Below are positions 17,291-58,621 of a stretch of 64,000 nt of DNA, in pieces. The stretch's first letter is position 1. Each line of letters starts with the position of its first letter. The stretch spans positions 1,243,095 to 1,307,094 of the forward strand of contig JAAOMT010000571.1 of NCBI GenBank assembly GCA_016748015.1, read 5' to 3'. The notes beneath the pieces are model-generated. The model saw only the letters and a list, made by a program, of their open reading frames with translations. It made no database searches and was not told the origin of the DNA. A program made the translations under genes and the position numbers. Origin of the DNA: Geosiphon pyriformis uo1. Taxonomy: Eukaryota > Fungi > Glomeromycota.

Positions 17291-17339
17291 TGTTTGTTGG
17301 CTCTTTTGGTTGGTTAAGTTGAGTATTGGTTTTTGTTTT

Positions 17340-22816: not shown

Positions 22817-23085
22817 TGTTACTGGAGGTTTTTGGTCTCTTTTCTGTAATGTTGTTGATACTTATTTGCTGTGAATTCACGTTTTCTGGATGTGGTTGAA
22901 CCTCCAGTAACTGAATTTATCTTCAAATTATCTCCTATAATTTGAACTGCTGGGCTTATAAGTGGAATGGCCAATTCTGTGCCAGTTGCTTTATGTAGTT
23001 ACGTTGTAGTAAACGTCAACTCTTTCCCAGGAATTGCTCATCTGGAAGCTCACTAAAAATGTGTAGTTACTTTGCTGTGAAAGTC

Positions 23086-23744: not shown

Positions 23745-24388
23745 GTTTGTTATTTCCAGATAATAATCCAAAATTATTGAAGAAATTTGGTCTGAAAATT
23801 GTTGAAATTTCAGTTCTGTGAGCTTTCTAATGTATTGAATCTTCAAAAGTTGAAAAATTGGGTTTTGTAGTACGTTTTCACAGGTGTGGAATAGGTCATA
23901 AAGTTTAAGAGCAGCTCTAAGCCTGTAGTGACTGTTTGTTAATCCAGCTGTTGTCTTGAATTCGTTGTGGAGTTGTTTCTGAATAGCTTCTTTTGTGAGG
24001 TTTGCTGTTGTAAGTTCCAGTTTCTGTTCATAGAGTGTTTTTCCAATGTGAAAATATCTATAGATTGGAGGATATTCAGTGTTTTCCTCATTGAGACACA
24101 ATTGAAGTTTTTGTTGAATTGTAGCATTTGGTGAAATACTAATCGGAATGAGCCTTAGGTTTTCTCTTAAAGCAAGCTTTAAAAGTTCTGGCAGATGAAT
24201 TCCAGTATAACTTCTTGTGTTCTTTTTATATGAGTGATATTTTCATGAGTTGGGGCTAAATTTGTAACTACTTCTGTTTGGGTATAATTAATGTGGTTTC
24301 CAGTAACAGTAATAGATAATTTGGGTATTGTTTTTAAAGCTAACATTAGTTTTTGGGATAATTGTTGAATGTTTTGAGGAATAGTTAT
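23745..24388 (-). pseudogene. A2 ORF3 (start decayed to ATA, frameshift, 3' end in gap)
   Basis: Near-identical peptide to A1/A3 ORF3 (YPPIYRYFHIGKTLYE...AALKLYDLF). Confidence 0.75.
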
Positions 24389-24509
24389 TATAAGCAATTG
24401 AAAAAAAATAAAAATTATTTTTGGTGTATGGGTTTTTTTTTATGTTATTTTTGTTTTTGTTTTTGTGAGATTGTTTCTAAATTATAAGAGAATGACTAGT
24501 AAAATTAAA

Positions 24510-25895: not shown

Positions 25896-25943
25896 TGTTT
25901 GTTGTTTTGATGCTATTAATTCAATTGAGTGTTGGTTTTGTTT

Positions 25944-28900
25944 CTAATCTTGCCTCATCCTTAAGAGACAATCAACATTGGTGTGGAGTTTTCCTGGTTT
26001 GTGGTGTATGATGTATTGGTAATTAGCTAAAAATCCTGTCCATCAGGTTTGTTTTGTGTTCAGCTGGGTGTTTTTGTTTTGAAGCCATTTAAGTCCAATA
26101 TTATTAGTGATAATATCGAATTCTTTGGGTCTGAGGTAAAAGTTGAAGTGATGTAGGGCCCAGATTACTGCTGCGGTTTCTAATTCTGTTGTAGGGTAGT
26201 TCTTTTGGCTGGCTTTAATGTTCTACTAGCATAAACAATTACTCGCTCATTTCTATTGTCATCTAACTGTAATAAGATGGCACCAAAGGCAGTATAAGAA
26301 GTGTCAATTGTTAACCAGAATGGGTTGCTGAAGTCTGGGTAGGCGAGGATTGGGGCTATTGTGAGTTTTTCCTTGAGTATCTCGAAGACATTTTGGTGTT
26401 CTTTTGTCCATTTGTATTCGACATTTTTCATAGTGAGCTGGTTGAAGGGTTTTGCAATTTCTGAGAATCCTTTGATGAATTTTCGGTAATAGAATGCTAA
26501 TCCAATAAATCCTCTTAATTCTGTGGTATTTCATGAAGTCTTGAAGTTTTTGACAGTACTGATTTTTCCAGGGTCTGGTTTAATTCCATTTTTGCTAACA
26601 ATGTGACCAAGAAAAGCTAAACTTGTTTTTCCAAAGTAGCATTTTTCAATGTTCAGTTTCAATTCTGCTTTCCATAATCATTGAAAAACTTCTCGCAGGT
26701 AAATTAAATGTAGCTCAAAAGATGGTGAATAAACATCAGTGTCATCAAGATAAACTACTACTGATTTCCAAAGGAGGTCTTTGTAAACAACATCCATGAG
26801 TCTTTGGAATGTTGCAGGTACATTGCATAATCCGAAAGGCATTACATTGAACTCGTAATTTTCTCCTTGAGTGGTGAATGCTGTTTTGGGGCAGTTTTTG
26901 GGATCCATAGCAACTTGCCAGTATCCACTCTCTAAATCTAATGTTGAAAGTATTTGGACTTTCCAAGGACATCCAACATGTCATCAATTTGGGAAAGAGG
27001 ATAAGCATCCCCAATGGTGACACTGTTGAGTTGTCAGTAATCAACACAAAATCGTATCTTTCCATTTTTCTTTTTAACTAAAACCACAGGTGAGGCCCAT
27101 GGGCTCATTGATAGTTGAATAAGCCCATTGTTAAGCATCTGTTGTACTTCTTTTCAGATAAATTGGTAACTTTCCAGAGCAACTCAGTAGGCTTGTTGTC
27201 GCCTGGGTTTGGCATCTCCTGTATAGATTTGGTGTTGAACCAAATTAGTTCTTCCTAAGTCATTGTTGTTTTCGGTGAAGATATCAGCAAATTCTGCAAT
27301 TAGTTCTTTGAGCTGGGTTTGTTGTTGTAGTTCAAGTTGTCCCATGTTGATTCGAGATAGTTTTTCCATGACAACATGGTAGTTTTCAGAGCTAGGGTTT
27401 GGATTGATTTTTGGTAATGAATGTCCAATAATTTCAGAGAAATCAGGGACTGTTTGGGGTAATTCTTGTTGAAATATATTATTGTGAATAACTCCAATTT
27501 CTAAATTATTTAACAAAATTATGAGGTAATTATTGGGTAATTATTGGGGTTGTAAAAAGTAACTCGGACTTTTTTTGTTCCTTCTGGAATATAAATGTTT
27601 GGGATCAAAATATTATGTTCCAAGCAGACTTGTTCATTGGACTCAAAAATTTGTTGTGTGGTTGTTGGCTTTGTGTAAGTGTAGATTTCCGGATGTTCTC
27701 CAAAGGATAAGATGGTAATTGGTTGTGGAAGTCTGAGAATCTGGTGGGATTCATTTTGTGTATTAAGAGCTATATTAATTGGAGCAGTAAATCGTCCAGT
27801 TGAACCAAAACCTTGGGTTCCTCTATCGCTTTTTCCTAATTGTTTTCTTTGATTGACTAGTTGCAGACCTGAAATGTTGATTAAGAGTAGGTAAATAGCT
27901 TGGGCAATTTTTTCAGCATGTTCGATCTTAAATGGTTTGTCGGTCTCATTTTGAAGCATCACTGTTATGTCTCCAGTATATCCAGCATCGATTATTCCTC
28001 CTCTGACATTGATTCCTTTGCTTGCCAGAGAGGACTAAGAGGCAATTTGAACCATTGCTCCTGGCGGGATTTCGAGTGCAATTTTGAGGTTGATTTTTGT
28101 AAGAGATTTGGGTTTAAGAACAAGAGTATCCTTGCCTGGATATCTTAGATCATATCCAGCATCAATTTTGTGTGCTTTTTCAGGTTTTATTCCTTGTCCA
28201 TTGTTGTTGAAGTATTTAAGTTGTAAGGCAGGCTGATTTTCAATAAGGTAGATGGGTGTTGTTTCAATTTCTTCTGTTTCTTCAGGTTCTCCAAATTCAA
28301 TTTTATTCTCATCATTTTCGCTGGGCAAGGGGATACTAAAAGCATAGAATTCGGGACACTATTGTTCATCACAAGACATAATGCATTCTTCACATAGCCT
28401 AATGTTTATTTGCTCTAATTGTTGAATTTGAGCTTCTTGGGTCAGGTAGGTGTGACTTGCAATTTAGTGGTAGACTTCTACTTCATCTTCGTAATCAAAT
28501 CCAGCTAATTCTATAGTGTATTCAATGTATTCTGCTTCCTTCATTTGACAAACATCTTCTTTGGTAGCTCTATTAATTAATGTCATTGCTAAGTCAAAAA
28601 TCATCTTGGCATCATGAGGGTAGTGATAAAATTTGTTGAGATGTGTATAAGAGACAGCCATAAATGTTTTGATTATTGGTTTTTCTTCTTTTGGTTCAAA
28701 TTCAAAAGCCGGAGCTTTTTTGAAGCATTTGTTGAATATACTACAAGTGGCAGGTATTCAGGCATGTTGTTCTTGGTAGGAGATTGTTAACTCTTGTGTT
28801 TCCCAATTCAGATTAGCATTGGCTTTTTGAAGCCAATCATTTCTGACGAGAGCTTGGTACTGAGGTGCGTCCATTATAAGAACTTTGACTAGAATGGTGA

Positions 28901-31142
28901 TTCCATCAAGAGTGAATGGAAAATTGTCAATTTCTCCTACTGGTGTCTTTTTCATGCCATCAGCAATAACAATTACTGTTTGAACTGGTCGGTCAACATT
29001 TCTTTTCAACTGTTGTATTAACTGGTAAGTAATAATGCTTTCAGCGGATCCATTGTCTAGGATCAAGCGAATTGGCTTTTCTTTTACTTCAGCTTCTGCA
29101 TACATTGCAGTGATGGTTTTTTGCTCATTGGCCGCTGCATTGCTAAGCAAGAATGGTGATTTATTTGCTTCAAATTCAAAAGGAAAGATATCAGAGAGAT
29201 TGGCGTTTTCAGCGATTCGAGCTGGTGGAATAGTGGTGTGGTTATGAGAAGGGTTTTGTTGTTGTTGTGCTGCAGCTCTACCTTTCAAGAGTACAATATG
29301 ATGAAAATTCTGTTCTTCCAGCATTGTTAAATAACTGGGTTGAGTGTGGTAATGGTTGGGTCTTGATTGAGTGGTATTTCGGGGAACTAATTGGTTGTTC
29401 GAACTGATTCTACTGTTGTTTACTTGGTATCAGTTTTGTGGTGTGAATTGATTTTGTGTAATCAGTTTTCGAGCAGGGACTTGATAATGTTGTGTGGGTG
29501 GTTGTTGGTATTGCTGTTGGATTGGTTGTGGGGCGGGCTGATAATAGTTATTTTGGTATTGGGGTCTTGGTGGATAGTAAACTGGTGGTAATAGTTGATA
29601 ATAAGATTGCTGTGGTGAAGAGTAACATTGATTACCCCTATTTTGTTGGTCTCGTTGCAGCTTTCTGCAATCTCTTTTCCAGTGGCCAAAGATTCCACAG
29701 TAATGACAATTTTGGGACTGGTTATTGGAAAGTGATGCAAAGTTATTTTGATTTTGTCTTTGGGGTGGTTGATATCTTTGGGGTTGTTGTTGTTGGTTGG
29801 TAAAATAGTTTTCGACCTTCTTTGTGAGTTGGTCAATTTTTTCCTCAGCTGCTGAGCTGGTTTTTCCAATTGCCAAATTTACAAGTTTTGTATGATTGGC
29901 TTCTTCTATGGCCATTTCATATCTTTTCGCATGCTGTATGGCAGAGTTTAAATCTTCTGGCGCGTGTGGGCAAATCTTTTTAATTAGTTTATATTTTAGA
30001 CCAGTGATAAATTGATCCAAGATTTGAGCATCAGAATAATAATTATTTGTCTCAAGTTGGCAAATCTGTCTGAGAAGTTTGTTGAATTTCCCAATATAAG
30101 TTATAATGGATTTGGAGGGTTCTTGTTTGATATTTCGAAAACGATTGCGAAGAGTGATAGAGGTATTATTGTCGGTGAACTGTTCAAGGAAGGCTGCTTT
30201 GAAAGCATTCCAATCATTGAATGGGACGGCAAGGTTTTCAAACCATTTTTCTGCTGTTCCTTTGAAAAAGTAGGGAATTGTTCTTAACATTCTGGCAGCG
30301 TTCCATCCATTTGCATCTCCAGCTTTAGTAACTTGGTCAGGTCATTCTTGGGGACTGGTCTCAATATCTTCTCCATTGAATTCAGGGATTTTTGCGATGT
30401 ATGTTGTCATTTTGTTTTTTTTGTTTTCACTGTCTATTGATTCTTCTTCGGTTATTTCAGAGTTGTTTTCTTCATTTGCTGCTGTCTCAGAGTGTTTACT
30501 TTGATTTTCAGCTAGAAAATCAAGGAGATTGGAACTAGTTTGAAGGGGTTCTTGTTGTTTGGTAGAACTTCTGAGTGATGTAAAATTTTCTGGTCTTGCA
30601 AATCGATTCAAGAGTGAATTAGGTGTTTGTGCTTGTGCATGCGAAGCTAGAAAAGGTGTGATAGTAAGTGGAAGTTTTGAACTGGTTCCTTGTTCAGGTG
30701 TTTGTAAATGTTTGGCAGTTGTTTTCGGTAGTGTTAGAGTATTTGGGGTGGTTCTTGAATATTGCTTTAATTTGTTTTTGCCTTTGTTACTTGTTTCTGT
30801 TTCCAATTCAAAATCAATAGTGTATTGAGACTGCACTGGATATGTTTCTTCACAGTATTTGATAATGTTAAAATTAAGTTCATGAAAGTAAGTGGCAAGT
30901 GTTTCACTATTAAGATCTTCAGTTCTCAACTGTGAATAGTGTACTAAATTATTGTAAAAGTTGCTTCTAACTTCTGAGATATTAAAATTTCCAAAAAGAT
31001 AATTGTTGATGCGGTTTTCAATGTATTGGTATACTGATTTCTTGACAACTTCAATTCCATCTGGAATGTTGAATCTTTGCTTGCAGTGGGTGTAAATTGA
31101 TTGGTAATACTCTAGAGTTGTTGCGTCTGGTGTGGTCGCCAC
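25944..31142 (-). pseudogene. gag-pol: A2 gag-pol (retains RT YLDD; Cys-rich domain interrupted by adapter artefact)
   Basis: Capsid, CHYCGIFGHWKRDC, protease, dUTPase DAGYDL...RGTQGFGSTG, VVYLDDT, RNase H; several stops and frameshifts. Confidence 0.93.
28639..28657 (+). other. Tn5/Nextera mosaic-end adapter (assembly contamination)
   Basis: Exact AGATGTGTATAAGAGACAG, located where ~440 bp present in A1/A3 is missing. Confidence 0.97.
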
Positions 31143-31187
31143 TTTGAATTTGTTTTTGCTGTGTTGTTTCCGTGGGAGAGCACCAAA

Positions 31188-32171
31188 TGTTACCAGAGGT
31201 TTTTGATCTCTTTTCTGTAATGTTGTTGATACTTATTTGCTGTGAATTCACGTTTTCTGGATGTGGTTGAACCTCCAGTAACTGAATTTATCTTTAAATT
31301 ATCTCCTATAATTTGAACTGCTGGGCTTATAAGTGGAATGGCCAATTCCATGCCAGTTGCTTTATGTAGTTACGTTGTAGTAAATGTCAACTCTTTCCCA
31401 AGAATTGCTCGTCTGGAAGCTCACTAAAAATGTGTAGTTATTTTGCTGTGAAAGTTAACTCTTCTACAGGAATCTCGTCTGTAGGCTACCCTAATGATTG
31501 TAATAAGAAAAGAAAGAAAAATAAAAGAAGTGTAAAAGAAATAGGATCTTATCAAGGGAAACGTTTTTCTATCCAGGCCTGGAGTCACTAACAGTTTTAC
31601 TGAAATTGGTAGCTAATCAATTTCGAAATGTTAGTTGGGTTTTGGGGATTTTCCAAGTACAATAATTAAAGAATTTGGTTTTTCAAATTATTTGATATTT
31701 ATTTCTTTTTGTGTATATAGGAACGGTTTTAAGAGATAAATCTAAAGTAAGATACATTTTCTCGAAGAGAGAAGCTTTTCTTTTATACAACTTGTTGTAA
31801 CACTATTCTATGAACTTGAACTTTGCTATTTTCTACAATTTCACTGAACTAAAGATACATTTCGGCAAACTACAAGTTATTTTGGCGAACTATTAATTAA
31901 TTTGGGTGAACTATTCATTATTTCAGCGAATTTCTACAAATTTTGGTGAACTTCTGAATGTTACATAGTTCGGGGTATTGTATGATTGATCATCGCAATT
32001 AGGTTACATTTGTGTTGTGTACAATTTGAGTTATTAATTAAATGATAATTTCGGACATTTTTTTTGCTAATGTAATAAGTGATTATTTGGAACAATAATA
32101 TATGCTAATTAATGATAGGAATTATAAGATAATTTCATGCTAAATAATATCTCTAATTTTGTCTGGTAACA
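31188..32171 (-). repeat. 5' LTR of A2
   Basis: TGTTACCAGA...TCTGGTAACA; followed in sense orientation by TT + PBS. Confidence 0.95.
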
Positions 32172-32356
32172 TCATTGATTCGATTTTTGATGTATTGAAA
32201 AAGTGTTTTCTTGAAAGCTATGATTCCATCACGTATTTCAAATCATTGTTTGCAGTGTGTGTAAATCGATTGATAGTACTCTAAGGTTGTGATGTCTGAG
32301 GCAGTCGCCACTTTGAATTTGTTGTTGCTGTGTTTTTTCTATGGAAGAGCACCAAA

Positions 32357-33352
32357 TGTTACCAGAGGTTTTTGGTCTCTTTTTTTAAATGTTGTCGATG
32401 CTTGTTTGCTGTGAATTCACATTTTCTGGATGTGGTTGAACCTCCAGTAACTGAATTTATCTTCAAATTATCTCTTATAATTTGAACTTGCTGGACTTAT
32501 GAGTGGAATGGCCAATTCTGTACCAGTTACTTTGTATAGTTACATTGTAGTAAACATCAACTTTTTCCCAGGAATTGCTTGTCTGAAAGCTTACTAAATT
32601 GTGTGTAGTTACTTTTGCTATAAAAGTCAACTCTTCTACAGGAATCTTGTCTGTAGGCTACCCTAATAATTATAATAATCAAAGAAAAGAAAATAAAAGA
32701 AAAGGAAAGAAAAAAAAGAAATGAGAAATTGATTTGTTAAAGTCATTTTGGATCCAGGCCTGGAAGTGTTTTAACAGTCTACTAAAATTGGTAGCTAATC
32801 AATTTCAAACTGTTAGTTGTGTTTTTGAGGATTTTCCAAGTGCAATAATTTAAAAAATTTGGTTTTTCAAATTATTTAATATTTATTTCTTTTTGTGTAT
32901 GTAGGAATGGTTCTAAGTAATAAATCTAAAGTAAGATACATTTCCTTGAAGAAAAAAGCTCTTTTTTTATACAACTTGTTGTAACACTATTCTATGAACT
33001 TAAACTTTGCTCTTTTCTACAATTTTGCTGAACTGAAAATACATTTCGGCGAACTACAGGTTATTTCTGCGAACTATTGGATATTTTGGTGAACTATCAA
33101 TTATTTCGGCGAATTTCTACAAATTTCGGCAAACTTTTTGAATGTTATATAGTTTGGGGTATTGCATAATTGATCATCGCAATTAGGTTACATTTGTGTT
33201 ATGTACAAATTGGGTTATTAATTAAATAATAATTTCGGACATTTTGCTAATATACTAAGTGATAATTTGAAATGATAATATATGTTAATTAATAATAGGA
33301 ATTATAAAGATAATTTCATGCTAAATAATATCTCTAATTTCGTCTGGTAACA
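32357..33352 (-). repeat. 5' LTR of A1
   Basis: Same length and subfamily-specific sequence as 14114-15109. Confidence 0.95.
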
Positions 33353-34201
33353 GTGCATAAAATCAGTAATTTTAACACCAGCAACCTTGGGATCATGAAA
33401 GACAGTAACAGCCTCTTAAAGCCATCTATTGAAAACAAAACTTTTGTAAAGAGCCAAGGAAACCAGCAAATCCAAAGCACAGGTTGACATAAACTGCAAC
33501 ACAACCAAAGAGGGAAGAGAGAGCCCAGAAAGTGATCTTCAAGAAGACATACAGGATTCCAGAACCTGATGATGAGCCAAATCATCAGCCAAATCATCAG
33601 CCACATAAGAAAACACATGATTAGAAACCTCTACCTCACCACAATATAGACACAGAACACTAGGGTAACATTTATCATAAATGCACTTCTGAATAGTCAC
33701 AGGAAGCCAACAGTACAAAGCCTTCATAAGATAAGTGTGAGTATTAGCTGTGAGCCTACTAGTGAAACCAGTGGCCATATGCAAATCAGAGTGCCAAACC
33801 CTAAAAGAACTGAGCCAGTCAACATCTGAATGCAAATTACTAGCCAGAAATCCAGAACTGGAACTGACCTCCCAGTGTGCATGACAAACTGCATGACAAA
33901 TATCTCAAACAAAGTGTCTAGAATTACCAAAAACAATACCACCATCCGCCAACAAAAAATGTCCATCTATGTGAAAAGGAAAATACCACCCAGATAGAGA
34001 TGCAGCATCAGCGATGCTATCAGTGCAATCATTCCCTAAAACACTGAAGTGGCCCTTGACTTTGTGCCAACTAACTCTCAAATTCTTACTGTGGATAACA
34101 TTCCGAATATGCTAACACTCAACCCAACATCAATTGTGAAAATCAGAGCACACCAGGCTTAACTCAGACCTATAAGCATCTAAAGCTGTTTAACTATTCG
34201 A
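33353..34201 (-). pseudogene. Host LINE ORF2 fragment: RNase H C-terminal half and Zn finger
   Basis: WHKVKGHFSVLGNDCTD, CLYCGEVEVSNHVFS. Confidence 0.88.
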
Positions 34202-35182
34202 TGTTACTAGACAAAATTAGAGATATTATTTAGCATAAAATTATCTTATAATTCCTATCATTAATTAGTATATATTATCGTTCCAAATGATCACTTATTA
34301 CATTAGCAAAAATGTCCGAAATTATTATTTAATTAATAACTCAAATTGTACACAACACAAATGTAACCTAATTGCGATGATCAATCATGCAATACCCCGA
34401 ACTATGTAACATTCAGAAGTTCGCCGAAATTTGTAGAAATTTGCCGAAATAATGGATAGTTTACTGAAATATCTAATAGTTCACCAAAATAACTTGTAGT
34501 TCGCCAAAATGTATCTTTAGTTCAGCGAAATTGTAGAAAATAGCAAAGTTCAAGTTCATAGAATAGTGTTACAACAAGTTGTATAAAAGAAAAGCTTCTC
34601 TCTTCGAGAAAAATGTATCTTACCTTAGATTTATCACTTAGAACCATTCCTATACACACAAAAGAAATAAATATCAAATAATTTGAAAAACCAAATTCTT
34701 TAATTATTATACTTGGAAAATTCCCGAAACCCAACTAATGTTTTGAAATTGATTAGCTACCAATTTCAATAAACTGTTAGTGACTCCAGGCCTGGATAGA
34801 AAGCGTTTCTCTTGATAAAAATTCTATTTCTTTTACACTTCTTTTATTTTTCTTTTCTTTTCTTATTACAATCATTAGGGTAGCCTACAGACGAGATTCT
34901 TGTAGAAGAGTTGACTTTCACAGCAAAGTAACTATACATTTTTAGTGAGCTTCCAGACAAGCAATTCCTGGAAAAGAGTTGACATTTACTACAATGTAAC
35001 TACATAAAGCAACTGGCATGGAATTGGCCATTCCACTCATAAGCCCAGCAAGTTCAAATTATAGGAGATAATTTGAAGATAAATTCAGTTACTGGAGGTT
35101 CAACCACATCCAGAAAACGTGAATTCACAGCAAATAAGTATCAACAACATTACAGAAAATAGACCAAAAACCTCCAGTAACA
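34202..35182 (+). repeat. 5' LTR of A3
   Basis: TGTTAC...GTAACA; matches 43090-44070. Confidence 0.95.
34420..34588 (+). promoter_or_regulatory. U3 array of six TTCGCCGAAA-type motifs at 20-21-bp period, followed by a TATA box (TATAAAA 34582-34588)
   Basis: Motifs at ~34420, 34440, 34460, 34480, 34500 and 34521; present in every family A LTR. Promoter function is inferred. Confidence 0.55.
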
Positions 35183-35184
35183 TT

Positions 35185-35202
35185 TGGTGCTCTCCCATGG
35201 AA
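35185..35202 (+). promoter_or_regulatory. Primer-binding site of A3
   Basis: TGGTGCTCTCCCATGGAA, 2 nt after the LTR; complementary to a tRNA 3' end ...GGGAGAGCACCA. Confidence 0.8.
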
Positions 35203-35227
35203 ATAACACAGCAAAAACAAATTCAAA

Positions 35228-38200
35228 GTGGCGACCACACCAGACGCAACAACTCTAGAGTATTACCAATCAATTTACACCCACTGCAAACAAAGATTCA
35301 ACATTCCAGATGGAATTGAAGTTGTCAAGAAATCAGTATACCAATACATTAAAAACTGCATCAACAATTATTTTTTTGGAAATTATAATATCTCAGAAGT
35401 TAGAAACAACTTTTACAATAATTTAGTACACTATTCACAGTTGGGAACTGAAGACCTTAATAGTGAAACACTTGCCACTTACTTTCACGAACTTAATTTT
35501 AATATTATCAAATACTGTGAAGAAACATATCCAGTGCAGTCTCAATACACTATTGATTTTGAATCGGAAACAGAAACAAGCAACAAAGGCAAAAACAAAT
35601 TAAAACAATATTCAAGAACCACCCCAAATACTCCAACACTACTGAAAACAACTGCCAAACATTTACAAACACCTGAACAAAGAACCAGTTCAAAACTTTC
35701 ACTTACTATTACACTTTTTCCAGCTTCACTTGCACAAGCACAAACACCTAATTCACTCTTGAATCGATTTGCAAGACCAGAAGATTTTACATCACTCAGA
35801 AGTTCCACCAAACAACAAGAACCTCTTCAAACTAGTTCCAATCTTCTTGATTTTCTAGCTGAAAATCAAAGTGAACACTCTGAAACAGCAGCAAACGAAG
35901 AAAACAACTCTGAAATAACCAAAGAAGAATTAATAAACAGTGAAAACGAAGAAAACGAAATGACAACATACATCGCAAAAATCCCTGAATTCAATGGAGA
36001 AGATATTGAGACCAGTCCCCAAAAATGGCTCGACCAAGTTACTAAAGCTGGAGATGCAAATGGATGAAATGCTGTCAGAATGTTAAGAACAATTCTCTAC
36101 TTTCTCAAGGGAACAGCAGGAGAATGGTTTGAAAACCTTGCCGTCCCATTCAATGATTGGAATGCTTTCAAAGCAGCCTTCCTTGAACAGTTCACTGACA
36201 ATAATACCTCCATTACTCTTCATAATTGTTTTCGAAATATCAAACAAGAACCCTCCAAATCCGTTATGACTTATATTAGGAAATTCAACAAACTTCTCAG
36301 ACGGATTCGCCAACTCGAGACAAATAATTATTATTCTGATGCTCAAATCTTAGATCAATTTATCACTGGTCTAAAAGATAAACTAATTAAAAAGATTCAC
36401 CTACATGCACAAGAAGATTTAAACTCTGCCATACAGCATGCGAAAAGATATGAAATGGCCATAGAAGAAGCCAATCATACAAAACTTGTAAATTTGGCAA
36501 TTGGAGAACCCAGCTCAGCAGCTGAGGAAAAAATTGACCAACTCACAAAGAAGGTCGAAAACTATTTTACCAACCAACAACAACAACCCCAAAGATATCA
36601 ACCACCCCAAAGACAAAATCAAAATAACTTTGCACTACTTTCCAATAACCAGCCCCAGAATTGCCATTACTGTGGAATCTCTGGCCACTGGAAAAGAGAT
36701 TGCAGAAAGCTGCAACGAGACCAACAAAATAGGGGTAATCAACATTACTCTCAACCACAGCAATCTTATTATCAACCATTACCACCAGCTTACTATCCAC
36801 CAAGACCCCAATACCAAAATAACTATTATCAGTTCACCCTACAACCAATCCAACAGCAATACCAACAACCATCCACACAACATTATCAAGTATCTGCTCA
36901 AAGACTGATTACACAAAATTAATTCACACCACAAAACTGATACCAAGTAAACAACAGTAGAATCAGTTCGAACAACCAATTGGTTCCCCAAAATACCACT
37001 CAATCAAGACCCAACCATTACCATACTCAACCCAGTTATTTAACAATGCTGGAAGAACAGAATTTTCATCATATTGTACTCTCGGAAGGTAGAGCTGCAG
37101 CACAACAACAACAAAACCCTTCTCATAACCACACCACTATTCCACCAGCCCGAATCGCTGAAAACGCCAATCTCTCTGATATCTTTCCTTTTGAATTTGA
37201 AGCAAATAAATCACCATTCTTGCTTAGCAATGCAGTGGCCAATGAGCAAAAAGCCATCACTGCAATGTATGCAGAAGCTGAAGTAAAAGGAAAGCCAATT
37301 CGCTTGATTCTAGACAGTGGATCTGCTGGAAGCATTATTACTTACCAGTTAATACAACAGTTGAAAAGAAATGTTGACCAACCAGTTCAAACAGTAATTG
37401 TCACTGCCGATGGCATGAAAAAGACACCAGTAGGAGAAATTGACAATTTTCCATTCACTCTTGATGGAATCACCATTCCAGTCAAAGTTCTTGTAATGGA
37501 CGCACCTCAGTACCAAGCTCTCGTCAGAAATGATTGGCTTCAAAAAGCCAATGCTAATTTGAATTGGGAAACACAAGAGTTAACAATCTCCTACCAAGGA
37601 CAACACGCCCGGGTATCTGCCATTTGTGGTACATTCAACAAACACTCTGAAAAAGCCCCGGCTTTTGAATTTGAACCAAAAGAAGAAAAACCAATAATCA
37701 AAACATTCATGGCTCTTGGATCAACGTCCAACTGGGCCGATGAAACTGAACAAGAACACTTTACCCCACACACTAAACCCAAAACCTCTGGATGGAATAT
37801 ACCTTACTCAAAACCCGAATCAAAAAAACAACGCTCCTATATTCCCCTTAAATGTAAGGACTGCCACAAGAAACTATCATCAATGGAAGCCTGCATTTCA
37901 CCTGAAAAAGAATATGAGAATCATACTTGTTATTACTGCAAGGCTTGCCACAGAGAGTGATGGGGCCATCTAATAAAAAAGAGCGGAAAATGGGACAACA
38001 CCCCTTGTTTGACTTGTGGAGATATGCTACCAGAAGAATGCAATTGGATTGATGTAGCAATGAGAAAAGGTGTTTGTGATCAGACCTGCCAATATGTTTT
38101 ATCAATTTCAGAAAAAGTAAAAAGAGGAACACCCTTTAATGCAGCATACAATAATACTCTCAACAAACTTTATCACTACCCTCATGATGCCGAGATGATT

Positions 38201-40846
38201 TTCGACTTAGCAATGGCATTAATTAATGGAGCTACCAAAGAAGATGTTCATCAAATGAAGGAAGCAAAATACATTGAATACACTATGGAATTAGCTGGAT
38301 TTGATTACGAAGATGAAGTAGAAGTCTACCACCAAATTGCAAGTCACACCTATCCAACCCAAGAAGCTCAAATTCAACAATTAGAGCAAATAAACATTAG
38401 GCTATGTGAAGAATGCATTATGCCTTGCAATGAACAGTGGTGTCCTGAATGCTATGCTCTTAGTATCCCCTTGTCCAGCGAGAATAATGAGAATGAAATT
38501 GAATTTAGAGAACCTGAAGAAACAGAAGAAATTGAAACAACACCCATCTACCTTATTGAAAATCAGCCTGCCTTACAACTTAAATACTTCAACAACAACG
38601 GACAAGGAATAAAACCCAAAAAAGCACATGAAATTGATGCTGAATATGACCTAAGATATCCAGGCAAGGATACTCTTGTTCTTAAACCCAAATCTCCCAC
38701 AAAAATCAATCTCAAAATTGCACTCGAAATCCCGCCAGGAGCAATGGTTCAAATTGCCTCTTGGTCCTCTCTGGCAAGCAAAGGAATCAATGTCAAAGGA
38801 GGAATAATCGATGCTGGATATACTGGAGACATAACAGTGATGCTTCAAAATGAGACCGACAAACTATTTAAGATCAAACATGCTGAAAAAATTGCCCAAG
38901 CTATTTACCTACCCTTAATCAACATTTCGGGTTTGCAACTAGTCAATCAAAGAGAACAATTAGGAAAAAGCGATAGAGGAACCCAAGGTTTTGGTTCAAC
39001 TGGACAATTCACAGTTCCAGTTAATATAGCTCTTAACACACAGAACGAATCCCACCAGATTCTCAGACTTCCACAACCAATTACCATCTCACTCTTTGGA
39101 GAACATCCGAAAATCTACACTTGCACAAAGCCAACAACCACACAACAAATTTTTGAGTCCAATGAACAAGTCTGCTTGGAACATAATATTTTGATCCCAA
39201 ACATTTATATTCCAGAAGGAACAAAGAAAGTCCGAGTTACTTTTTACAACCCTAATAATTACCCCATAATTTTGTTAAATAATTTAGAAATTGGAGTTAT
39301 TCACAATAATATATTTCAACAAGAATTACCCCAAACAGTCTCCGATTTCCCTGAAATTATTGAACATTCATTACCAAAAATCAACTCAAACCCTAGCTCT
39401 GAAAACTACCATGTTGTCATGGAAAAACTATTTCGAATCAACATAGGACAACTTGAACTATAACAACAAACCCAGCTCAAAGAACTAATTGCAGAATTTG
39501 CTGATATCTTCGCCGAAAACAACAATGACTTAGGAAGAACTAATTTGGTTCAACACCAAATCTATACAGGAGATGCCAAACCCAGGTGACAACAAGCCTA
39601 CCGAATTGCTCCGGAAAGTCACCAATTTATCCGAGAAGAAGTACAACGGATGTTTAACAATGGGCTTATTCAACTATCAATGAGCCCATGGGCCTCACCT
39701 GTGGTTCTAGTTAAAAAGAAAAATGGAAAGATACGATTTTGTGTTGATTACTGACAACTCAACAGTATCACCATTGGGGATGCTTACCCTCTTCCCCAAA
39801 TTGATGACATGTTGGATGCCCTTGGAAAGTCCAAATACTTTTCAACATTAGATTTAGAGAGTGGATACTGGCAAGTTGCTATGGATCCCAAAGACTGCCC
39901 CAAAACAGCATTCACCACTCAAGGAGAAAATTACGAGTTCAATGTAATGCCTTTCGGATTATGCAATGCACCCGCAACATTCCAAAAACTCATGGATGTT
40001 GTTTACAAAGGCCTCCTTTGGAAATCAGTAGTAGTTTATCTTGATAACACTGATGTTTATTCACCATCTTTCGAGCTACATTTAATTTACCTGCGAGAAG
40101 TTTTTCAATGATTACGGAAAGCAGAATTGAAACTGAACATTGAAAAACGCTACTTTGGAAAGACAAGTTTAGCTTTTCTTGGTCACATTGTTAGCAAAGA
40201 TGGAATTAAACCAGACCCCGGAAAAATCAGTACTGTCAAAAACTTTAAGACTTCATGAAATACCACAGAATTAAGAGGATTTATTGGATTAGCATTCTAT
40301 TACCGAAAATTCATCAAAGGATTCTCAGAAATTGCAAAACCCCTCAACCAGCTCACTACTAAAAATATCGAATACAAATAGACAGAAGAACACCAAAATG
40401 CCTTCGAAATACTTAAGGAAAAACTCACAACAGCCCCAATCCTCGCCTACCCAGACTTCAGCAACCAATTCCGGTTAGCAACTGACGCTTCTTATACTGC
40501 TTTTGGTGCCATCTTATCACAGTTAGATGACAATGGAAATGAGCGAATAATTGCTTATGCTAGTAGAACATTAAAGCCAGCCAAAAAAAACTACCCCGCA
40601 ACAGAATTAGAAACCACAGCAGTAATCTGGGCCCTACATCACTTCAACCTTTACCTCAGACCCAAAGAATTCGATATTATCACTGATAATATTGGACTTA
40701 AATGGCTTCAAAACAAAAACACCCAGCTGAACACAAAACAAACTCGATGAACAGGATTTTTAGCTAATTACCGATACATTGTACACCACAAACCAGGAAA
40801 ACTCCACACCAACGTTGATTGTCTTTCAAGGATGAGGCAAGATTAG
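35228..40846 (+). pseudogene. gag-pol: A3 gag-pol single-frame polyprotein: N-terminal extension, capsid (from ATG 35960), CCHC knuckle (36662-36703), aspartic protease (DSG at 37313), Cys-rich domain, dUTPase, RT, RNase H
   Basis: ORF pieces at 35228, 36080, 36980, 38009 and 39809 share one frame; interrupting stops are TGG/CAA/CGA-derived; ends SRMRQD-TAG. Confidence 0.94.
38580..39004 (+). CDS. dut: Trimeric-type dUTPase domain within the polyprotein
   Basis: All five motifs: DA(G)YDL, AS(R)SSL, GIIDAGYTG, KIAQ, RGTQGFGSTG. Confidence 0.93.
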
Positions 40847-40894
40847 AAACAAAACCAACACCCATTTGAATTAACAGCATCAAAACAACAAACA

Positions 40895-42280
40895 ATGGAC
40901 CCCGAAAACTACAACAATCTCAAACAATATTTGAAGACATTAACAATCCCAACAGATTGGTCCTCAGACGAAAAACATCGGTTACAACAACAAGCCAATC
41001 AATATTTTTTACACAACAACATTATCTATCATCGAAATTTCAAAAACCCAACCAAACCACTTAGATTAATACAAGAACAGAAAAAAGAGACCATTTTATA
41101 CAACATGCACTTGGATCCTTTATCAGCACACTTCGAAAAAGATAGCACCACCCAAAGAACACTAGAATACTACTTTTGGCCTCGAATGAGAAAAGACATT
41201 CACAAATATGTCGAATCTTGTGATAGTTGTTAAAGAAGAGGAGGAACTCGTCCTACAGAACCTTTAAATCCAATCAAAGTTGGACAGCCTTTTGACAGAG
41301 TTGGTATCGATTTAGTCGGACCACTATCTATTACCACTCAAGGAAACCGTTATATTGCAGTAGCTGTAGACTATCTTACTAAATGGCCTAAAGCCAGAGC
41401 CATTCAACAAGCAGATGCAAAATCAGTAGCAAATTTTATCTACGAAGACATCATTTGTAGACATGGATGTCCAATTGAACTTTTATCCGATCAGGGAACA
41501 CACTTTGTGAACAACCTGATACAAGAAATTTGTGAACAATTCAATGTCAAAAGACCTCTGTCTTTGCCCTATCATCCACAAACAAACAGACTTGTGGAAC
41601 GTTTTAACAGAACATTGTGTGAGTCATTAGCCAAAGTCTCAACCAATTTTGAGCAAGAATGGGATCTCTTTATTCCATCAGTGTTACTAGCATATAAGAC
41701 ATTAAAACAAGACACCACGAAACACACACTATTTGATTTAACTTATGGAAGGATGGCAACGTTACCAATTAGTTTCACAGTAGAAACATACCCAACACAA
41801 CTGATTGATGAAAACAATTTCCAAGAAATGCTTCAGCGAAGAGCCTACACTCTATTTAGTACATTGGAAGAAAAACGATGAATAGCAGCCACCCATATTG
41901 AACACTCCCAAGCTCAACAAAAAGAATGGCATGATGACAAATTGTGTTCAGTCATCAATAAATTCAAAATTGGAAACAAAGTTCTCTTACACAGAACTAA
42001 AGCTGAAAAACAATGAAGTGGAAAATTTGAAAATAAATGAGATAGACCATTCTTTATTCATGAAGTCCTAGGCAATAGATCATACAAGCTAAGACTTGAT
42101 GACAAAATCCTAGCAAAAGTTGCACATGGAGATTGTTTGAAACACTATTATTTCAGAAACAATCCTGAACTATTAATTTCACAAATTGGTACACATTCCC
42201 ATTTGGTCAGTCCCGAAGATATTCCCCGAAACTTAGAACCAATAGTTGTCATTGAACAACCTTTCAATCTGAACACTTAA
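40895..42280 (+). pseudogene. int: A3 integrase ORF (461 codons, decay stops)
   Basis: HHCC, GIDLVGP, SDQGTHF, VERFNRT; GPF-type C-terminus; no chromodomain seen. Confidence 0.93.
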
Positions 42281-42401
42281 TTTAATTTTACTAGTCATTC
42301 TCTTATAATTTAGAAACAATCTCACTAAAACAAAAACAAAAATAACATAAAAAAAAATCCATACACCAAAAATAATTTTTATTTTTTTTCAATTGCTTAT
42401 A

Positions 42402-43121
42402 ATGACTATTCCTCAAAACATTCAACAATTATCCCAAAAACTAATGTTAGCTTTAAAAACAATACCCAAATTATCTATTACTGTTACTGGAAACCACATT
42501 AATTATACTCAAACAGAAGTAGTTACAAATTTAGCCCCAAACTCATGAAAATATCACTCATATAAAAAGAACACAAGAAGTTATACTGGAATTCATCTGC
42601 CAGAACTTTTAAAGCTTGCTTTAAGAGAAAACCTAAGGCTCATTCCGATTAGTATTTCACCAAATGCTACAATTCAACAAAAACTTCAACTGTGTCTCAA
42701 TGAAGAAAACACTGAATATCCTTCAATCTATAGATATTTTCACATTGGAAAAACACTCTATGAACAGAAACTGGAACTTACAACAGCAAACCTTACAAAA
42801 GAAGCTATTCAAAAACAACTCCACAATGAATTCAAGACAACAGCTGGATCAACAAACAGTCACTACAGGCTTAAAACTGCCCTTAGACTTTATAACCTAT
42901 TTCACACCTGTGAACACGTACTACAAAACCCAATTTTTCAACCTTTGAAGATTCAATACATTGGAAAGCTCACAGAACTGAAATTTTAACAATTTTTAGA
43001 CCAAATTTCTTCAATAATTTTGGATTATTATCTGGAAATAACAAACAGTACTTGGACTTTGACGGAGCTCAGTCTTGAGGAGGAGATTATGTTACCAGAC
43101 AAAATTAGAGATATTATTTAG
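42402..43121 (+). pseudogene. A3 ORF3, ~239-aa unknown protein overlapping the PPT and 3' LTR
   Basis: ATG 42402 to TAG 43119-43121 in one frame with two decay stops; conserved in A1, A2 and distantly in B. Confidence 0.78.
43077..43086 (+). promoter_or_regulatory. Polypurine tract of A3
   Basis: GAGGAGGAGA, 3 nt before the 3' LTR. Confidence 0.8.
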
Positions 43122-44070
43122 CATAAAATTATCTTATAATTCCTATTATTAATTAGTATATATTATCATTCCAAATGATCACTTATTACATTAGCAAAAA
43201 TGTCCGAAATTATTATTTAATTAATAACTCAAATTGTACACAACACAAATGTAACCTAATTGCAATGATCAATCATGTAATACCCCGAACTATATAACAT
43301 TCAGAAGTTCACTGAAATTTGTAGAAATTTGCCAAAATAATGGATAGTTCACTGAAATATCTAATAGTTTGCCAAAATAACTTGTAGTTCACTGAAATGT
43401 ATTTTTAGTTCAGCGAAATTGTAGAAAATAGCAAAGTTCAAGTTCATAGAATAGTGTTACAACAAGTTGTATAAAAGAAGAGCTTCTCTCTTTGAGAAAA
43501 ATGTATCTTACCTTAGATTTATCACTTAGAACCATTCCTATATACACAAAAGAAATAAATATCAAATAATTCGAAAAACCAAATTCTTTAATTATTATAC
43601 TTGGAAAATTCCCGAAACCCAACTAATGTTTTGAAATTGATTAGCTACCAATTTCAATAAACTGTTAGTGACTCCAGGCCTGAATAAAAAGCGTTTCCCT
43701 TGATAAAAATTCTATTTCTTTTACATTTCTTTTATTTTTCTTTTCTTTTCTTATTACAATCATTAGGGTAGCCTACAGATGAGATTCCTGTAGAAGAGTT
43801 AACTTTCACAGCAAAGTAACTACACATTTTTAGTGAGCTTCCAGATGAGCAATTCCTGGGAAAGAGTTGACATTTACTACAATGTAACTACATAAAGCAA
43901 CTGGCATGGAATTGGCCATTCCACTCATAAGCCCAGCAAGTTCAAATTATAGGAGATAATTTGAAGATAAATTCAGTTACTGGAGATTCAACCACATCCA
44001 GAAAACGTGAATTCACAGCAAATAAGTATCAACAACATTACAGAAAATAGACCAAAAACCTCTAGTAACA
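43090..44070 (+). repeat. 3' LTR of A3
   Basis: Direct repeat of 34202-35182. Confidence 0.95.
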
Positions 44071-45463
44071 CCGAAAACAAATTAACAAAACAAGCTGCAG
44101 ACATGCACTCCAAAGCCAACAATATAGCCTGTAATTTTGCTAAAGTAAATGACACTAAACCCTGAACACTGACATCCAAACCCAAATCAATGTCCTCAAT
44201 AAAAACGGCAGCCCCAGCTCTACAATCAGCTATGCCCAAATACTTCAAAGAACTATTTGTATATACAGACAAACTATCGATGTCAACCTGGGAAAGACAA
44301 CTATGAGCGGCCACAAAATCATTAGACTCACAAAAGTTAAGAAGACCAGCATCAACTAAGGCTGAGGAAAATAAATGAGAAGCCATAAGAAATGCAACAG
44401 AAAGATCAAACCATTCAGAAACTGGGCCATGAGGGTCTAGCCTCTTCCACCACTTGAAAGTACGCCAGCTAAAAACAATGCCATAATGATTACAAAGTTG
44501 ATCCACAAAGGCAATGCCAAAACACCAGAGAGAAGATAAAAACTTGAAAAACAAAGACTCGCCAAGAATGACAGACATAGGAACCCTGTCATGAAACTAA
44601 AAAGCACTGGCCAAAGAGCCACCCAAAGACAAATTGCAATCAAGGAGAATGCAAACCATACCAGCCAAGAAATTATTAGAAACACTGACATGAATACAAG
44701 CAGGAGAGATTAAAAGATGAATGGGCCACCAACACAGAATCTGTAAATCATGCGACCTGTGACTGAACAGATGCCCCAAGATCCTGCCAGAGTTCACAAA
44801 ACTAATAAGTGAAGCTACTTTACTCTCAGATTGATATTGTGAAAAAGATTTTAAACCATAAAAAAAAGGATGGTGAATAGTATCACTAGGAAAGTTCATC
44901 AGGAGACCAGCTTTTAATTTCAAGCCCTTGCAAATTAGAGCATCCCATTTATTACATATACCAACAGGAATATAGCCAAACTGCATTCTGTAGCTAATTA
45001 TGGGATAGAGAACTGCTAACACCAGATACAAAAACTGTTTATCTGAAACCACTTTTCTTAGAACTAAATTAGTAAAAAAATGAATGTCTAAATGCGCTTT
45101 AGTCAAGCTAAGCCTTGAAAGACCCTCGGTTGACAAAAAGATACCGAGATACTAATGAGATTCCCCTCTATGGGCAACAGAAATAGATAAACCACTAATA
45201 AAAAGAGATGGAACATTGACCCTGCTGTTGATTGGAATGACCACAGTTTTGTCATTATTAATTGAAATGTCATTAACTCGAAAAAATTCACTAGTAACAT
45301 TGAGAATATACTGAGTAGCAGTCTGACTGCTATCAACCCAAATAGTATCATTAACAAAGGCACCAGCAGCAAGGAAAGTAGAAAGCCTAGCCTAAGACTC
45401 AGTGTGACTACTCCCAGAAACAAAATGAGAATTGAGTCTGTAACTACACCACTCTCTTGATAC
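44071..45463 (-). pseudogene. Host LINE ORF2 fragment: RT C-terminal half (AFVND, decayed FVDD) to RNase H N-terminal half
   Basis: AAGAFVNDTIW at ~45335-45370; SVYTNSSL, LAKLQAI. Confidence 0.88.
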
Positions 45464-46448
45464 TGTTACCAAACAAAATTAGAGATATTGTTTAGCATGA
45501 AATTATCTTTATAAATCTTATCATTAATTAGCATATATTATCGTTTCAAATTATCACTTATTATATTAGCAAAATGTCTGAAATTATTATTTAATTAATA
45601 ATCCAATTTGTACATAACACAAATGTAACCTAAGTGCAATAATTAATTATACAATACCCCAAAATATGTAACATTCAAAAGTTTGCCGAAATTTGTAGAA
45701 ATTTGCTGAAATAATTGATAGTTTACCGAAATATCTAATAATTCACAGAAATAACTTGTAGTTTGCCAAAATGTATCTTTAGTTCAGCAAAATTGTAAAA
45801 AAGAGCAAAGTTCAAGTTCATAGAATAGTGTTATGACAAGTTGTATAAAAAAAGAGCTTTTCTCTTTGAGAAAATGTATTTTACTTTAGATTTAATAATT
45901 AAAATCATTCTTTATACACAAAAACAAAATAAATATCAAATAAATTTGAAAAACCAAATTCTTAATTATTTCCCTTGAAATTAACCAATTTCTACTAACA
46001 GTTTGAAATTGATTAGCTACCAATTTCAGTAGACTGTTAAAGCACTTCCAGGCCTGGATTCAAAACAACTTCTATAAATCATCAGTTTTACTTTTTCTTT
46101 TACATTTCTTTTATTCTCTTTTTTTTCTTATTATAAATCATTTGGGTAGCCTACAGATGAGAATTTCTGTAGAAGAGTTGACTTTCACAACAAAGTAATT
46201 ACACATTTTTAGTGAGCTTCCAGATGAGCAATTCCTGGGAAAGAGTTGACATTTACTACAACGTAACTATATAAAGTAACTGGCACAGAATTGGCCATTC
46301 TACTTATAAGCCCAGCAGTTCAAATTATAAAAGATAATTTGAAGATAAATTCAGTTATCGGAGGTTCAAACACTTTCCATAATCGTGAATTAACAGCATT
46401 ACAACAAACATACAAGAGCTAAAAAGAGACCAAAAACCTTCAGTAACA
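45464..46448 (+). repeat. Solo LTR, family A
   Basis: TGTTACC...GTAACA; no PBS or PPT on the flanks; TSD ATAC/ATGC; LINE RT continues on both sides. Confidence 0.92.
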
Positions 46449-48650
46449 ATGCTTAACTTCACACAAAAGAGGATTATAAAATATGCACCATAGCAGAGGG
46501 GAAAAAACTTCATCTTGGTTCAACCCATTAAACACCCGGTAACCATCAGTCAAACCAAAATCTGTCATGATACAGTTGGTTTGGTCCCTATGAATACTAC
46601 CAAAAAAGCAAACAAATTTACTACACATTTTGATCCTAACCAAGCTCCTCTCAAGGTGCTCCCAGCCAACTGAATCATACATCTTCCACATGTCCTATAG
46701 AACAAGCCAAAGTTCTTGGTTTTTTTCCAAAGCATTCTCAATTACCAAGCCAACTGCAAAAATAGGAGACTGAGTTGTTATACCCTTTAAAACCAAAAAA
46801 TTGTCACCACGCAGAACATCATATGAGCTGTAAGCCAGTAAGATCCTATCTGAAAGAATCTTAGATAGAATCTTGCGAGCTGTTTCAATCAAGGCAATAG
46901 GATAAGTATTCATAAGAACACCTTTCCACTCATAAGATTTGAGAATCATTGAAACCCAAGCCTCCTTTCAAGGACCAAACATTGACTCACAAAACAAACA
47001 AAAATTCAAAAAAACCAAAAGCAAATCCAAAACCGACTTATCACAACATTTCCAAAGTTCATTAGAGATGTCTAAGAGACCAGCAGTTTTTCCATCAGGA
47101 AGACTGGTAATCACACAATGCAACTCATCAAAATTAATTTCACTCATTATTTCAGAAAAAGCATCATCAAAAACGTAGTCCAAAGGTTTGTATTAATAAG
47201 ACCAAGTATCAGAAATATTATCAACCACCACACACTTTCTGGTCCATCCTTTTATGATAGCATCTATCTTGGATTTAACCAAATTAGGTTCAAGAACTAA
47301 CTCATTGTCCACAACCAGATGGTCCAAAACTACTTTGCAAAAGGGATGTTCCAACACATTTCTGATTGTACAACCCTTATTCAGCTCAAAACTCTCCATC
47401 CTATTGGTAATAGCCTGCTTAATGTGAAATTCTTCAGTGCGCTTGGACTCCAGCAATTTAGAAAAGTGGTATGACCTCCTTGCTTTGGCCAGAGCAGAAC
47501 AAATGTCATCAAATTTAGCCTTAGAAAAGAACATAGATCTTACTGTTAAAGCATCAGCAGAGTCAAGGTTGTCTTATGTACCCAAAAGCAAAGCAAAACT
47601 GACACTAGAACTCAAATGAGAAGCTTTCACCAGCTTAGAAACCAACAGCTCCAGCTTATGAAACCTAGATAATACTTTATTCCAAACCATATCAAAACCT
47701 TTAAACCATCTTCTCTTAAAAGCACCACCAGCTGAGAAAACCATAATCTTGTAAATGACATCCCATATAGCACCAAGATCAGAAAACTTTACAGCATCAC
47801 CAAATACACCTGATAACATAGTAGTGTTAGCAGCCATAGCATCTTTAAACTCAAGCCATTTAGCCTCACTGGCATTTTTGACATCAAATTTCCAATGATC
47901 TTTATTCACCTGCTTGTGAAGAAAAAACAAGTGTGTATCTAATAAACCGTCCAGACTCATAGATACAGACACAGTCTGGTGGTCTGTATTAAAATATTCC
48001 CCAACATTTGAAACACCATAATGTACCAAAGAATTGACTAGATTCAGTGAAACAAATACATAATTAATAGTTTTCATGATACCCTTAGAATTTGCCCAAG
48101 TGGGCATCTTAATGGCCAGGCTTTCAATCAAAGAGTTAACCAATCCCAACTCAAGGCACTTTTTGAAACTCACACACTTTCGAGAACTATTTTCATTAAA
48201 ATCACCACTAAAGACAACAAAAAAAGATTCATTAATGGCTTTAGCAATAAGAGAGTTGATTTCACCAGCCTGAGAAAACTGAACCACTGATGAAGCACCA
48301 GTGTAGAGCCCCAAAATAGACACTGAAAGTTTATTTTTGAAAAACAACTTGATAGACAGGAGCTGACCAGACACCTCAGAGACTTTGCAGACGTGTTTTG
48401 CTAAAGAAGAATTCATGATAATCAACACACTAGCATCCATAGAACCAGAATCCAGACCAGAAGTAAAAACCCGAACACCATCAAATTTGTTAGTCAACCA
48501 TGGGCGAACTTTCCCTTTAAGCTTTGACTCTGTAAAAATAGAAACCAAATTGTTTATATTCTTGTGCCAACGAATGACATCATCTTGCTTCACAGGATTG
48601 TTCAACCCACAAACATTACACATGGCAATTTTGCATACCAGACTACTTAT
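46449..48650 (-). pseudogene. Host LINE ORF2 N-terminal part: AP endonuclease and RT N-terminal half
   Basis: CNVCG, TESKL, GDFN, TINYVFVS, TDHQ (APE); YPIALIETARKI, YDSVGW, GLNQDEVFSPLLW (RT). Confidence 0.92.
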
Positions 48651-51909: not shown

Positions 51910-51954
<45 letters not shown>

Positions 51955-58601: not shown

Positions 58602-58621
58602 AATGGAAAATACAACAAAAA

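Follow-up and report, generated by a model that had tools for sequence, protein, structure and literature searches.

Translation that begins at a non-AUG codon ahead of Gag or capsid sequence is already known in gammaretroviruses, in plant pararetroviruses and in PEG10, a domesticated gag of Ty3/gypsy origin. Here we analyse a candidate of this kind in Ty3/gypsy long terminal repeat (LTR) retrotransposons of the glomeromycete fungus Geosiphon pyriformis, using a 64,000-nt stretch of its genome (hereafter the window). At the DNA level our evidence comes from three copies of one family (A1, A2 and A3 of family A), one copy of a second (family B), and eight and two LTRs, respectively. These elements carry a conserved domain, without an in-frame AUG, ahead of the capsid, and it would probably be translated from a GUG codon as part of the longer of two Gag isoforms. 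LTR elements are given as 41.2% of the G. pyriformis genome (PMC11952901).

In murine leukemia virus (MLV), an upstream in-frame CUG, with GUG also seen 12 codons further up, gives the extended minor Gag known as glyco-Gag (gPr80) at 6.7% of footprint density, and gammaretroviral Gag extensions are generally free of AUGs (PMC5778647). The MLV extension has 88 residues, bears a signal peptide, enters the endoplasmic reticulum (ER) and is glycosylated (PMC3042739). PEG10 uses both a CUG and an AUG in one frame, yielding two Gag-like isoforms, of which the CUG form, with a 34-residue extension, is the major one (PMC2800197). In the rice tungro bacilliform virus (RTBV)/badnavirus system, about 10% of ribosomes start at an AUU and the rest scan on through coding sequence that lacks AUGs for some 900 nt, as far as the open reading frame (ORF) that contains the capsid; changing AUU to AUG lowers downstream translation (PMC5902531). 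Ty1, a fungal LTR retrotransposon, makes a shorter Gag form, p22, from internal AUGs of its Ty1i RNA, and this form lacks part of the capsid (PMC5408680).

The Geosiphon elements resemble MLV in a probable in-frame non-AUG start further upstream, for which the sequence evidence is strong and which would give an N-terminally extended minor Gag. The original prediction had likened this extension to glyco-Gag, and the likeness does not reach past initiation. The MLV extension precedes the matrix, whereas the Geosiphon extension (218–330 residues) is hydrophilic and lies directly before the capsid in a fungal LTR retrotransposon, so that the AUG isoform would begin at the capsid and not at the matrix. 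No signal or transmembrane segment was found in the extension (maximum 19-residue Kyte-Doolittle mean 0.72 in A3 and 0.69 in B), and the 3 and 2 sequons in these extensions mean little without ER entry. Beyond the presumed mechanism of initiation, the Geosiphon extension is not a glyco-Gag. As in PEG10, a non-AUG and an AUG start in one frame would give two Gag isoforms; unlike the Geosiphon elements, PEG10 is a host gene with a short extension, for which the part of its description drawn on here reports no separate folded domain. The resemblance to RTBV lies in a long coding stretch, nearly AUG-free, behind a probable non-AUG start (in family A, and more weakly in B), but RTBV has separate ORFs, reached after ribosome shunting, whereas in Geosiphon the extension shares the frame of Gag-Pol and is continuous with it. 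Full-length Ty1 Gag has its own AUG, and p22, from the Ty1/copia group, differs from the Geosiphon reading in needing an internal transcript. Searches of the openly licensed literature turned up no description of Gag starting at a non-AUG codon, either in a transposing Ty3/gypsy element or in Geosiphon.

The AUG-less extension and its N-terminal domain

In A3, the 732 nt from the GTG at 35228 to 35959 (+ strand) form 244 sense codons without an in-frame ATG, ending at the capsid ATG at 35960. Only one ATG occurs in any frame (35310, in the +1 frame), against 11 in the following 210 nt, so the description given in the original prediction holds. It also holds that A2 and A1, both on the − strand, retain AAAGTGGCG; A1, A2 and B all keep AAAGTGGC. 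The A2 extension occupies 30411–31142 (GTG 31142, capsid ATG 30410). A2 is itself nested in the gag extension of A1 (window 14114–33352), a member of a divergent subfamily, leaving the A1 extension in two pieces, one at 32171–32311 (GTG 32311) and the other beyond A2 at 22230–22817 (capsid ATG 22229).

Family B was said to do the same, and this is true in part. Its extension (52398–53348, +) begins with AAA-GTG-GCA at 52398, has a homologous helical domain and linker, and runs for 317 Met-free codons with four out-of-frame ATGs to the capsid ATG at 53349–53351 (MAYAPIAK...); however, the copy is not stop-free, with in-frame TAAs at 53169 and 53304, and it is short of about 11 codons present in other family members. 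A further claim, that a TGA in the LTR blocks upstream starts, needs a similar adjustment. The TGA at 35120 and a TAA at 35069 are present in 8/8 aligned LTR copies, and an upstream in-frame AUG is therefore unavailable, but in A3 itself the nearest in-frame stop, a TAA at 35204, is private to that copy.

The first 105 codons (35228–35542) evolve under strong constraint at the protein level. The ratio of nonsynonymous to synonymous substitution rates (dN/dS) is 0.23 for A3–A1 and 0.19 for A2–A1 (dS 1.2–1.4, p ≤ 1e-7), similar to the 0.26 of the capsid, and it is still 0.35 (p = 0.001) once codons whose sole change is a C>T/G>A in A1 are removed. A3 and A2 have diverged too little for their comparison to be informative (0.36, p = 0.11). 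The Met-free linker that follows (35543–35959), S/T/P-rich and then acidic, has a dN/dS of 0.63–0.80, no different from 1, and its indels, of 9 and 12 nt in the A1–A3 comparison, are all in frame. A profile search identified a third family, C. The N-terminal domains are about 20–30% identical (A–B 23/104, A–C 21/103, B–C 31/103), with alignment shuffle z-scores of 5.8, 5.1 and 14.8, respectively, and the capsids of the families are about 38% identical. With dN/dS near 0.2 at dS > 1, in-frame indels only and protein homology across three families, the extension is, by these sequence measures, coding, and codons 1–105 are under purifying selection. A conserved AUG-less domain thus lies ahead of the capsid in three G. 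pyriformis retrotransposon families. None of the outcomes named in advance as fatal to the original prediction was observed, whether a consensus in-frame ATG at or before the GTG, a lack of ATG depletion or neutral evolution of the extension.

The helical domain that had been proposed is supported by an AlphaFold (AF2) model, in which four helices are predicted (pLDDT 85). The domain had no Pfam match above cut-off, no PDB sequence match and no usable Atlas match, and its model had no Foldseek match in the PDB or viral libraries, which leaves the fold unplaced, not proven new. Structure comparison gave a best VIA Z of 5.0 among 89 chains and, as regards a matrix fold, no significant match within the PDB and viral libraries. 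Many matrices, though not all, carry a Gly at position 2 for myristoylation; here position 2 carries not Gly but Ala, or the Val and Thr into which its codon decays. A myristoylation-type (MG-) start at the ATG at 35197 was considered and rejected, as it is out of frame and reads ACG in A2 and ATA in A1.

All 273 named rows matching the extension are G. pyriformis gene models, one of them 99% identical to the B copy of the window. Neither these rows nor the ten of ten profile matches looked up (from 150 listed of 201) include a homologue from outside Geosiphon; this is weak evidence, because gene callers confined to ATG starts would leave such extensions out. Metagenome and viral scans returned nothing apart from one distant gag.

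The GTG codon and the scarcity of ATG

The GTG of A3 lies in AAA-GTG-GC (35225–35232), a strong context with A at −3 and G at +4, and conservation begins at the corresponding Val-Ala (Val1) in all three families. Gene models read the last 30 nt of leader ahead of this Val in three frames (45/12/8, with 7 other, n = 72, in B; 23/9/2, with 63 spliced-in or other, n = 97, in A), so the leader tolerates indels of 1–2 nt. Position 1 is V97/M8/L1/I1 in family A (n = 107) and V68/M7/L4/I1 in family B (n = 80). Because G>A decay yields Met rather than Ile, the codon is GTG across both families, and Met occurs there about as often as the background of G>A change predicts (medians of 0.08 for A and 0.16 for B); by comparison, only 7 of the 90 Val codons in the A3 frame are GTG. 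Under search patterns that fix neighbouring residues and leave spliced-in starts and most N-terminal Met cases uncounted, residue −1 is Lys in 119/121 family A and 18/18 family C models and K87/T11/N3/S1 in family B (n = 102). As this residue is nearly always Lys, Thr or Asn, the A at −3 is retained while the amino acid varies. No variant at codon 1 appeared among the 40 of 365 variant rows listed for contigs aligned on 34201–37300. Among near-cognate codons, GUG generally ranks second in efficiency (PMC5666671). Based on this evidence, the extension is likely to start at the GTG codon.

Two ATGs in the LTR were considered as alternative gag starts and rejected. One, at 35018, on which many gene models rely ("MELAIPLISPA"), is an ATG in only 3/8 copies. 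The other, at 34613–34615, is fixed in 7/7 full LTR copies and lies near the inferred cap, about 30 nt downstream of a TATA-like TATAAAA (34582–34588), where it opens a 22-codon upstream open reading frame (uORF) unrelated to gag; on a reading of the sequence, no GT donor ahead of its stop could reach the gag frame.

The original prediction had also described ATG as depleted, a point to be checked against shuffled sequence. In A3 this is significant, with one ATG against 7.8 expected under dinucleotide shuffling (P = 0.0015), 6.6 under codon shuffling (P = 0.003) and 5.9 under local 25-codon shuffling (P = 0.01). Most ATGs of the A1, A2 and B extensions sit at decaying CpG sites, and because such decay turns ACG into ATG, raw counts are inflated in old copies. 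ATGs common to A1 and A3 number 1 in 732 nt versus 11.1 expected (P = 2e-4), with a background rate that takes in about 350 nt beyond the end of pol. Among the 64 out-of-frame triplets, ATG is the most depleted in the extension, whereas it ranks 60/64 in capsid plus pol.

Synonymous choices point the same way. At codons followed by G in the A3 extension, the ratio of NAT to NAC is 1:5, whereas that of N[CGT]T to N[CGT]C is 19:0 (p = 1e-4) and downstream NAY codons stand at 71 T to 11 C (p = 6e-4). Over the three copies, NAC is found at 8/11 such sites in the extension versus 26/94 downstream (p = 0.005). In the gene models, extension NAY-G sites are CpG-like, with a median of 0.36 (17 sites) versus 0.17 downstream (43 sites; pooled p = 5e-4, family A p = 0.019, family C p = 0.017). 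In the family A LTR, each of the nine alignment columns beyond 34613 in which ATG occurs also shows ACG or ACA. These results support specific avoidance of ATG in the extension of family A and, more weakly, of B. Avoidance of out-of-frame ATGs past a start would mean that ribosomes must reach a later start. The first fixed Met stands at the capsid start in all three families (70/85 models in A, 25/32 in B and 28/29 in C).

Probable leaky scanning and its alternatives

The reading we prefer, to which we assign a probability of about 0.6, is initiation at the GUG combined with leaky scanning, giving a long and a capsid-start Gag(-Pol). A small share of scanning ribosomes would start at the GUG, 43–60 nt past the primer-binding site (PBS), and make the long form. 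Most would pass it and travel through the ATG-depleted sequence to the capsid AUG, making capsid-start Gag(-Pol) as the major product. By analogy with MLV (6.7%) and RTBV (about 10%), the long form would amount to a few to about 10% of product, its stoichiometry being set by the weak start codon. It would carry the soluble four-helix domain on a linker of 110–220 residues and could co-assemble in low copy through its capsid domain, tethering a four-helix adaptor where the matrix sits in retroviruses. This adaptor might, more speculatively, contact a host factor for localisation or counter-defence. We infer the two Gag isoforms, initiation at the GUG, scanning to the capsid AUG and the isoform ratio from the nucleotide and protein sequences.

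Several observations weigh against this reading. The gene models are decayed and mutually related copies from a single genome and hence not independent samples, and for family C the putative start is known from protein sequence only. There is no stable hairpin 3′ of the GTG in the 76–83 nt windows folded, which gave z-scores of 0.4 to 1.2 for A and −0.5 for B. Individually, A2 (4 ATGs, P = 0.18–0.23), A1 (P = 0.24) and B (P = 0.13–0.15) show no significant depletion by codon shuffling alone; the ATG z of −2.5 is about the chance minimum among 64 triplets, and CAT is low too. In family B the gene-model test of NAY-G sites is not significant (p = 0.13) and the junction test is flat (3:3 vs 12:7). 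The lone out-of-frame ATG of the A3 extension, which has a weak context (C at −3) and a 38-codon uORF (35310–35426), is common to A1, A2 and A3 and apparently fixed in family A. The leader of B has four ATGs in its 5′ LTR (51410–52335, +; ATGs at 51779, 51805, 51829 and 51850) that are shared with its 3′ LTR, with uORFs of 4–20 codons and a strong context at 51829, although one of the four is Thr in 5/5 gene models. The capsid ATG of B has C at −3, and position 172 of family C is M10/T7/I6 (n = 23).

ATG-poor sequence is also found outside the extension. The stretch 36458–37228 has 0 out-of-frame ATGs versus 6.8 expected and is at least as ATG-poor as the extension, and in an unrelated decayed gag (L001, 26% identity) 444 ATG-free nt precede the capsid Met (P = 0.035). 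In L001 this linker (311–757) is S/T/P-rich and acidic and lies directly ahead of that Met. The second A3 stretch (about 780 nt; 36458–37229, +) covers the nucleocapsid, with its CCHC knuckle at 36659–36709, and a Q/P/N/Y linker, and its end lies close to the Met that is conserved where the protease begins (ITAMY, 37265–37267; 68/73 family A models), with out-of-frame ATGs at 37230 and 37242 before that Met. Its B equivalent has 5 ATGs in about 840 nt. The second stretch could reflect another round of scanning, on a sub-genomic RNA, or linkers may be ATG-poor for another cause; given that stretch and L001, linker composition may add to the ATG signal in the extension.

Composition also figures in a rival explanation in which the GUG is the sole start: the weak codon would cap expression, the protease would free the capsid from one long Gag, the capsid Met would be a cleavage-site or structural residue, and ATG scarcity would follow from linker composition. 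The recurrence of Met at domain borders behind ATG-poor linkers fits it, since the protease too starts at a conserved Met after such a linker, L001 is similar, and a further linker gap, the third, covers 539 nt up to a Met close to the reverse transcriptase (RT). That gap is not significant (P = 0.15), however, and composition fails to explain either the synonymous sites, with NAC before G at 5:1 where other codons have T at 19:0, or the gene-model test with the families pooled. Any ribosome that missed the GUG would still meet the capsid ATG as its first in-frame AUG, and we regard a sole GUG start as unlikely. At still lower odds stands an AUG made by splicing, in which an LTR exon ending in A would be joined at AAAG/TGGC to create A+TG-GC, with scanning to the capsid AUG left to unspliced RNA. 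This too would account for an ATG-poor extension; AG/TG is present at the GTG site in 4/4 window copies, several gene models use this acceptor, and the family A LTR contains donor-like A/GTAACT and A/GTGAGC or A/GTAAGC. Splice acceptors prefer YAG, yet here the acceptor would mostly be AAG, the upstream 40 nt are about half A with 3–7 T and no pyrimidine tract, and in one B subfamily three models carry Asn at −1 (AAY-GTG), which leaves no AG.

We give no better chance to an arrangement that keeps the GUG long form but derives the capsid-start form from an internal transcript (similar to Ty1i/p22), shunting or internal entry, perhaps as a regulator or restriction factor and not as the main Gag. 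It has the Ty1 precedent (PMC5408680), and scanning ribosomes would have to cover about 1.35 kb in family A, with one fixed upstream ATG on the way, and about 1.7 kb in family B, with up to four in the leader; the second ATG-poor stretch is also most easily explained by a sub-genomic RNA. Against it, ATG is avoided throughout the extension and, in family A, in the leader from 34616 onward, which a transcript starting near the capsid would not require. Very improbable, finally, is that the extension is an untranslated leader derived from an old coding sequence and kept ATG-free for scanning. The lack of an AUG start, the expectation of ATG-free leaders and a linker dN/dS no different from 1 (0.63–0.80) would suit such a leader, but the dN/dS of about 0.2 at dS > 1 in codons 1–105, the in-frame indels and the protein homology across three families contradict it.

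Surrounding elements and wider meaning

A3 is bounded by paired LTRs of 981 nt with TG...CA ends (34202–35182 and 43090–44070, both +, 96.6% identical). A TGG-led PBS-like site, TGGTGCTCTCCC..., begins 2 nt past the 5′ LTR (35185–35202, +), and a purine tract (43077–43085) lies just before the 3′ LTR; no tRNA against which the PBS-like site could be matched was found in the 64-kb window. The 4-nt target duplication is exact in A1 and B and has one mismatch in A3. A single gag-pol frame of 2350 codons (35228–42280, +), interrupted by 16 internal stops in this decayed copy, encodes the extension, the capsid (35960–36463, from MTTYIAK..., the putative main start), the knuckle, protease, dUTPase, RT and integrase. 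Pfam matches on gag (PF03732, E = 2e-14; PF19259, E = 8e-8; PF00098) indicate a Ty3-type capsid, with PF03732 and PF19259 falling in the capsid, and a CCHC knuckle; Pfam also placed the protease, dUTPase and integrase in that order, and the RT between them was identified by eye from the translation. A dUTPase stands between protease and RT in both families (37961–39463, +; 54870–56258, −), with a Cys/His-rich stretch ahead of it.

Past the integrase, an extra ORF of about 240 codons (about 42400–43121, +) runs through the purine tract into the 3′ LTR and is conserved in A1, A2 and A3, with a possible B equivalent near 60100–60660; a 146-residue piece of it had no Pfam match above cut-off. The B element is internally inverted (53860–58770), so that the end of the capsid is on the + strand near 53860, knuckle to RT are on the − strand and integrase is again on the +; two of its frames are open for about 100 codons past the knuckle. 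Both LTR families contain a long T-rich tract followed by AG/GRTAGCC (34820–34887, 51870–52027), resembling a 3′ splice site or a U5 polyadenylation downstream element.

Additional family A LTRs at 45464–46448 and 49305–50297 have no PBS behind them. A 659-N assembly gap (23086–23744) falls within the A2 3′ LTR, and ORFs listed across it are artefacts. By eye, decayed ORFs at 43988–45151, 47574–48764, 50655–51134, 62747–63967 and 6393–6950 look like pieces of non-LTR retrotransposon endonuclease, RT and RNase H. Mutation is mostly C>T/G>A (192/363 variant places relative to A3, with another 127 in the reverse direction), peaking at CpG and also common at TG/CA, with Met>Ile at 6–38% at some sites.

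A broader picture can be drawn only tentatively, and we consider it doubtful as a whole. In place of frameshifting, starts could be stacked in the single 2350-codon frame: the GUG for long Gag with its new four-helix domain, a leakily reached capsid AUG for the main Gag, and the protease Met for Pol, by way of a sub-genomic RNA and a 780-nt AUG-free runway. AUG-less Gag extensions might be common among fungal gypsy elements and have gone unnoticed by annotation that accepts only ATG starts.

A GUG start would explain why hundreds of gene models splice unrelated exons onto one Val, and CpG decay patterns mean that even decayed copies can expose selection on start codons. The 105-residue domain matches no known family, and the reading we prefer can be tested directly with a reporter. 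If it is true, a non-AUG start lets an autonomous LTR retrotransposon equip a minor fraction of its Gag with an entire folded domain.

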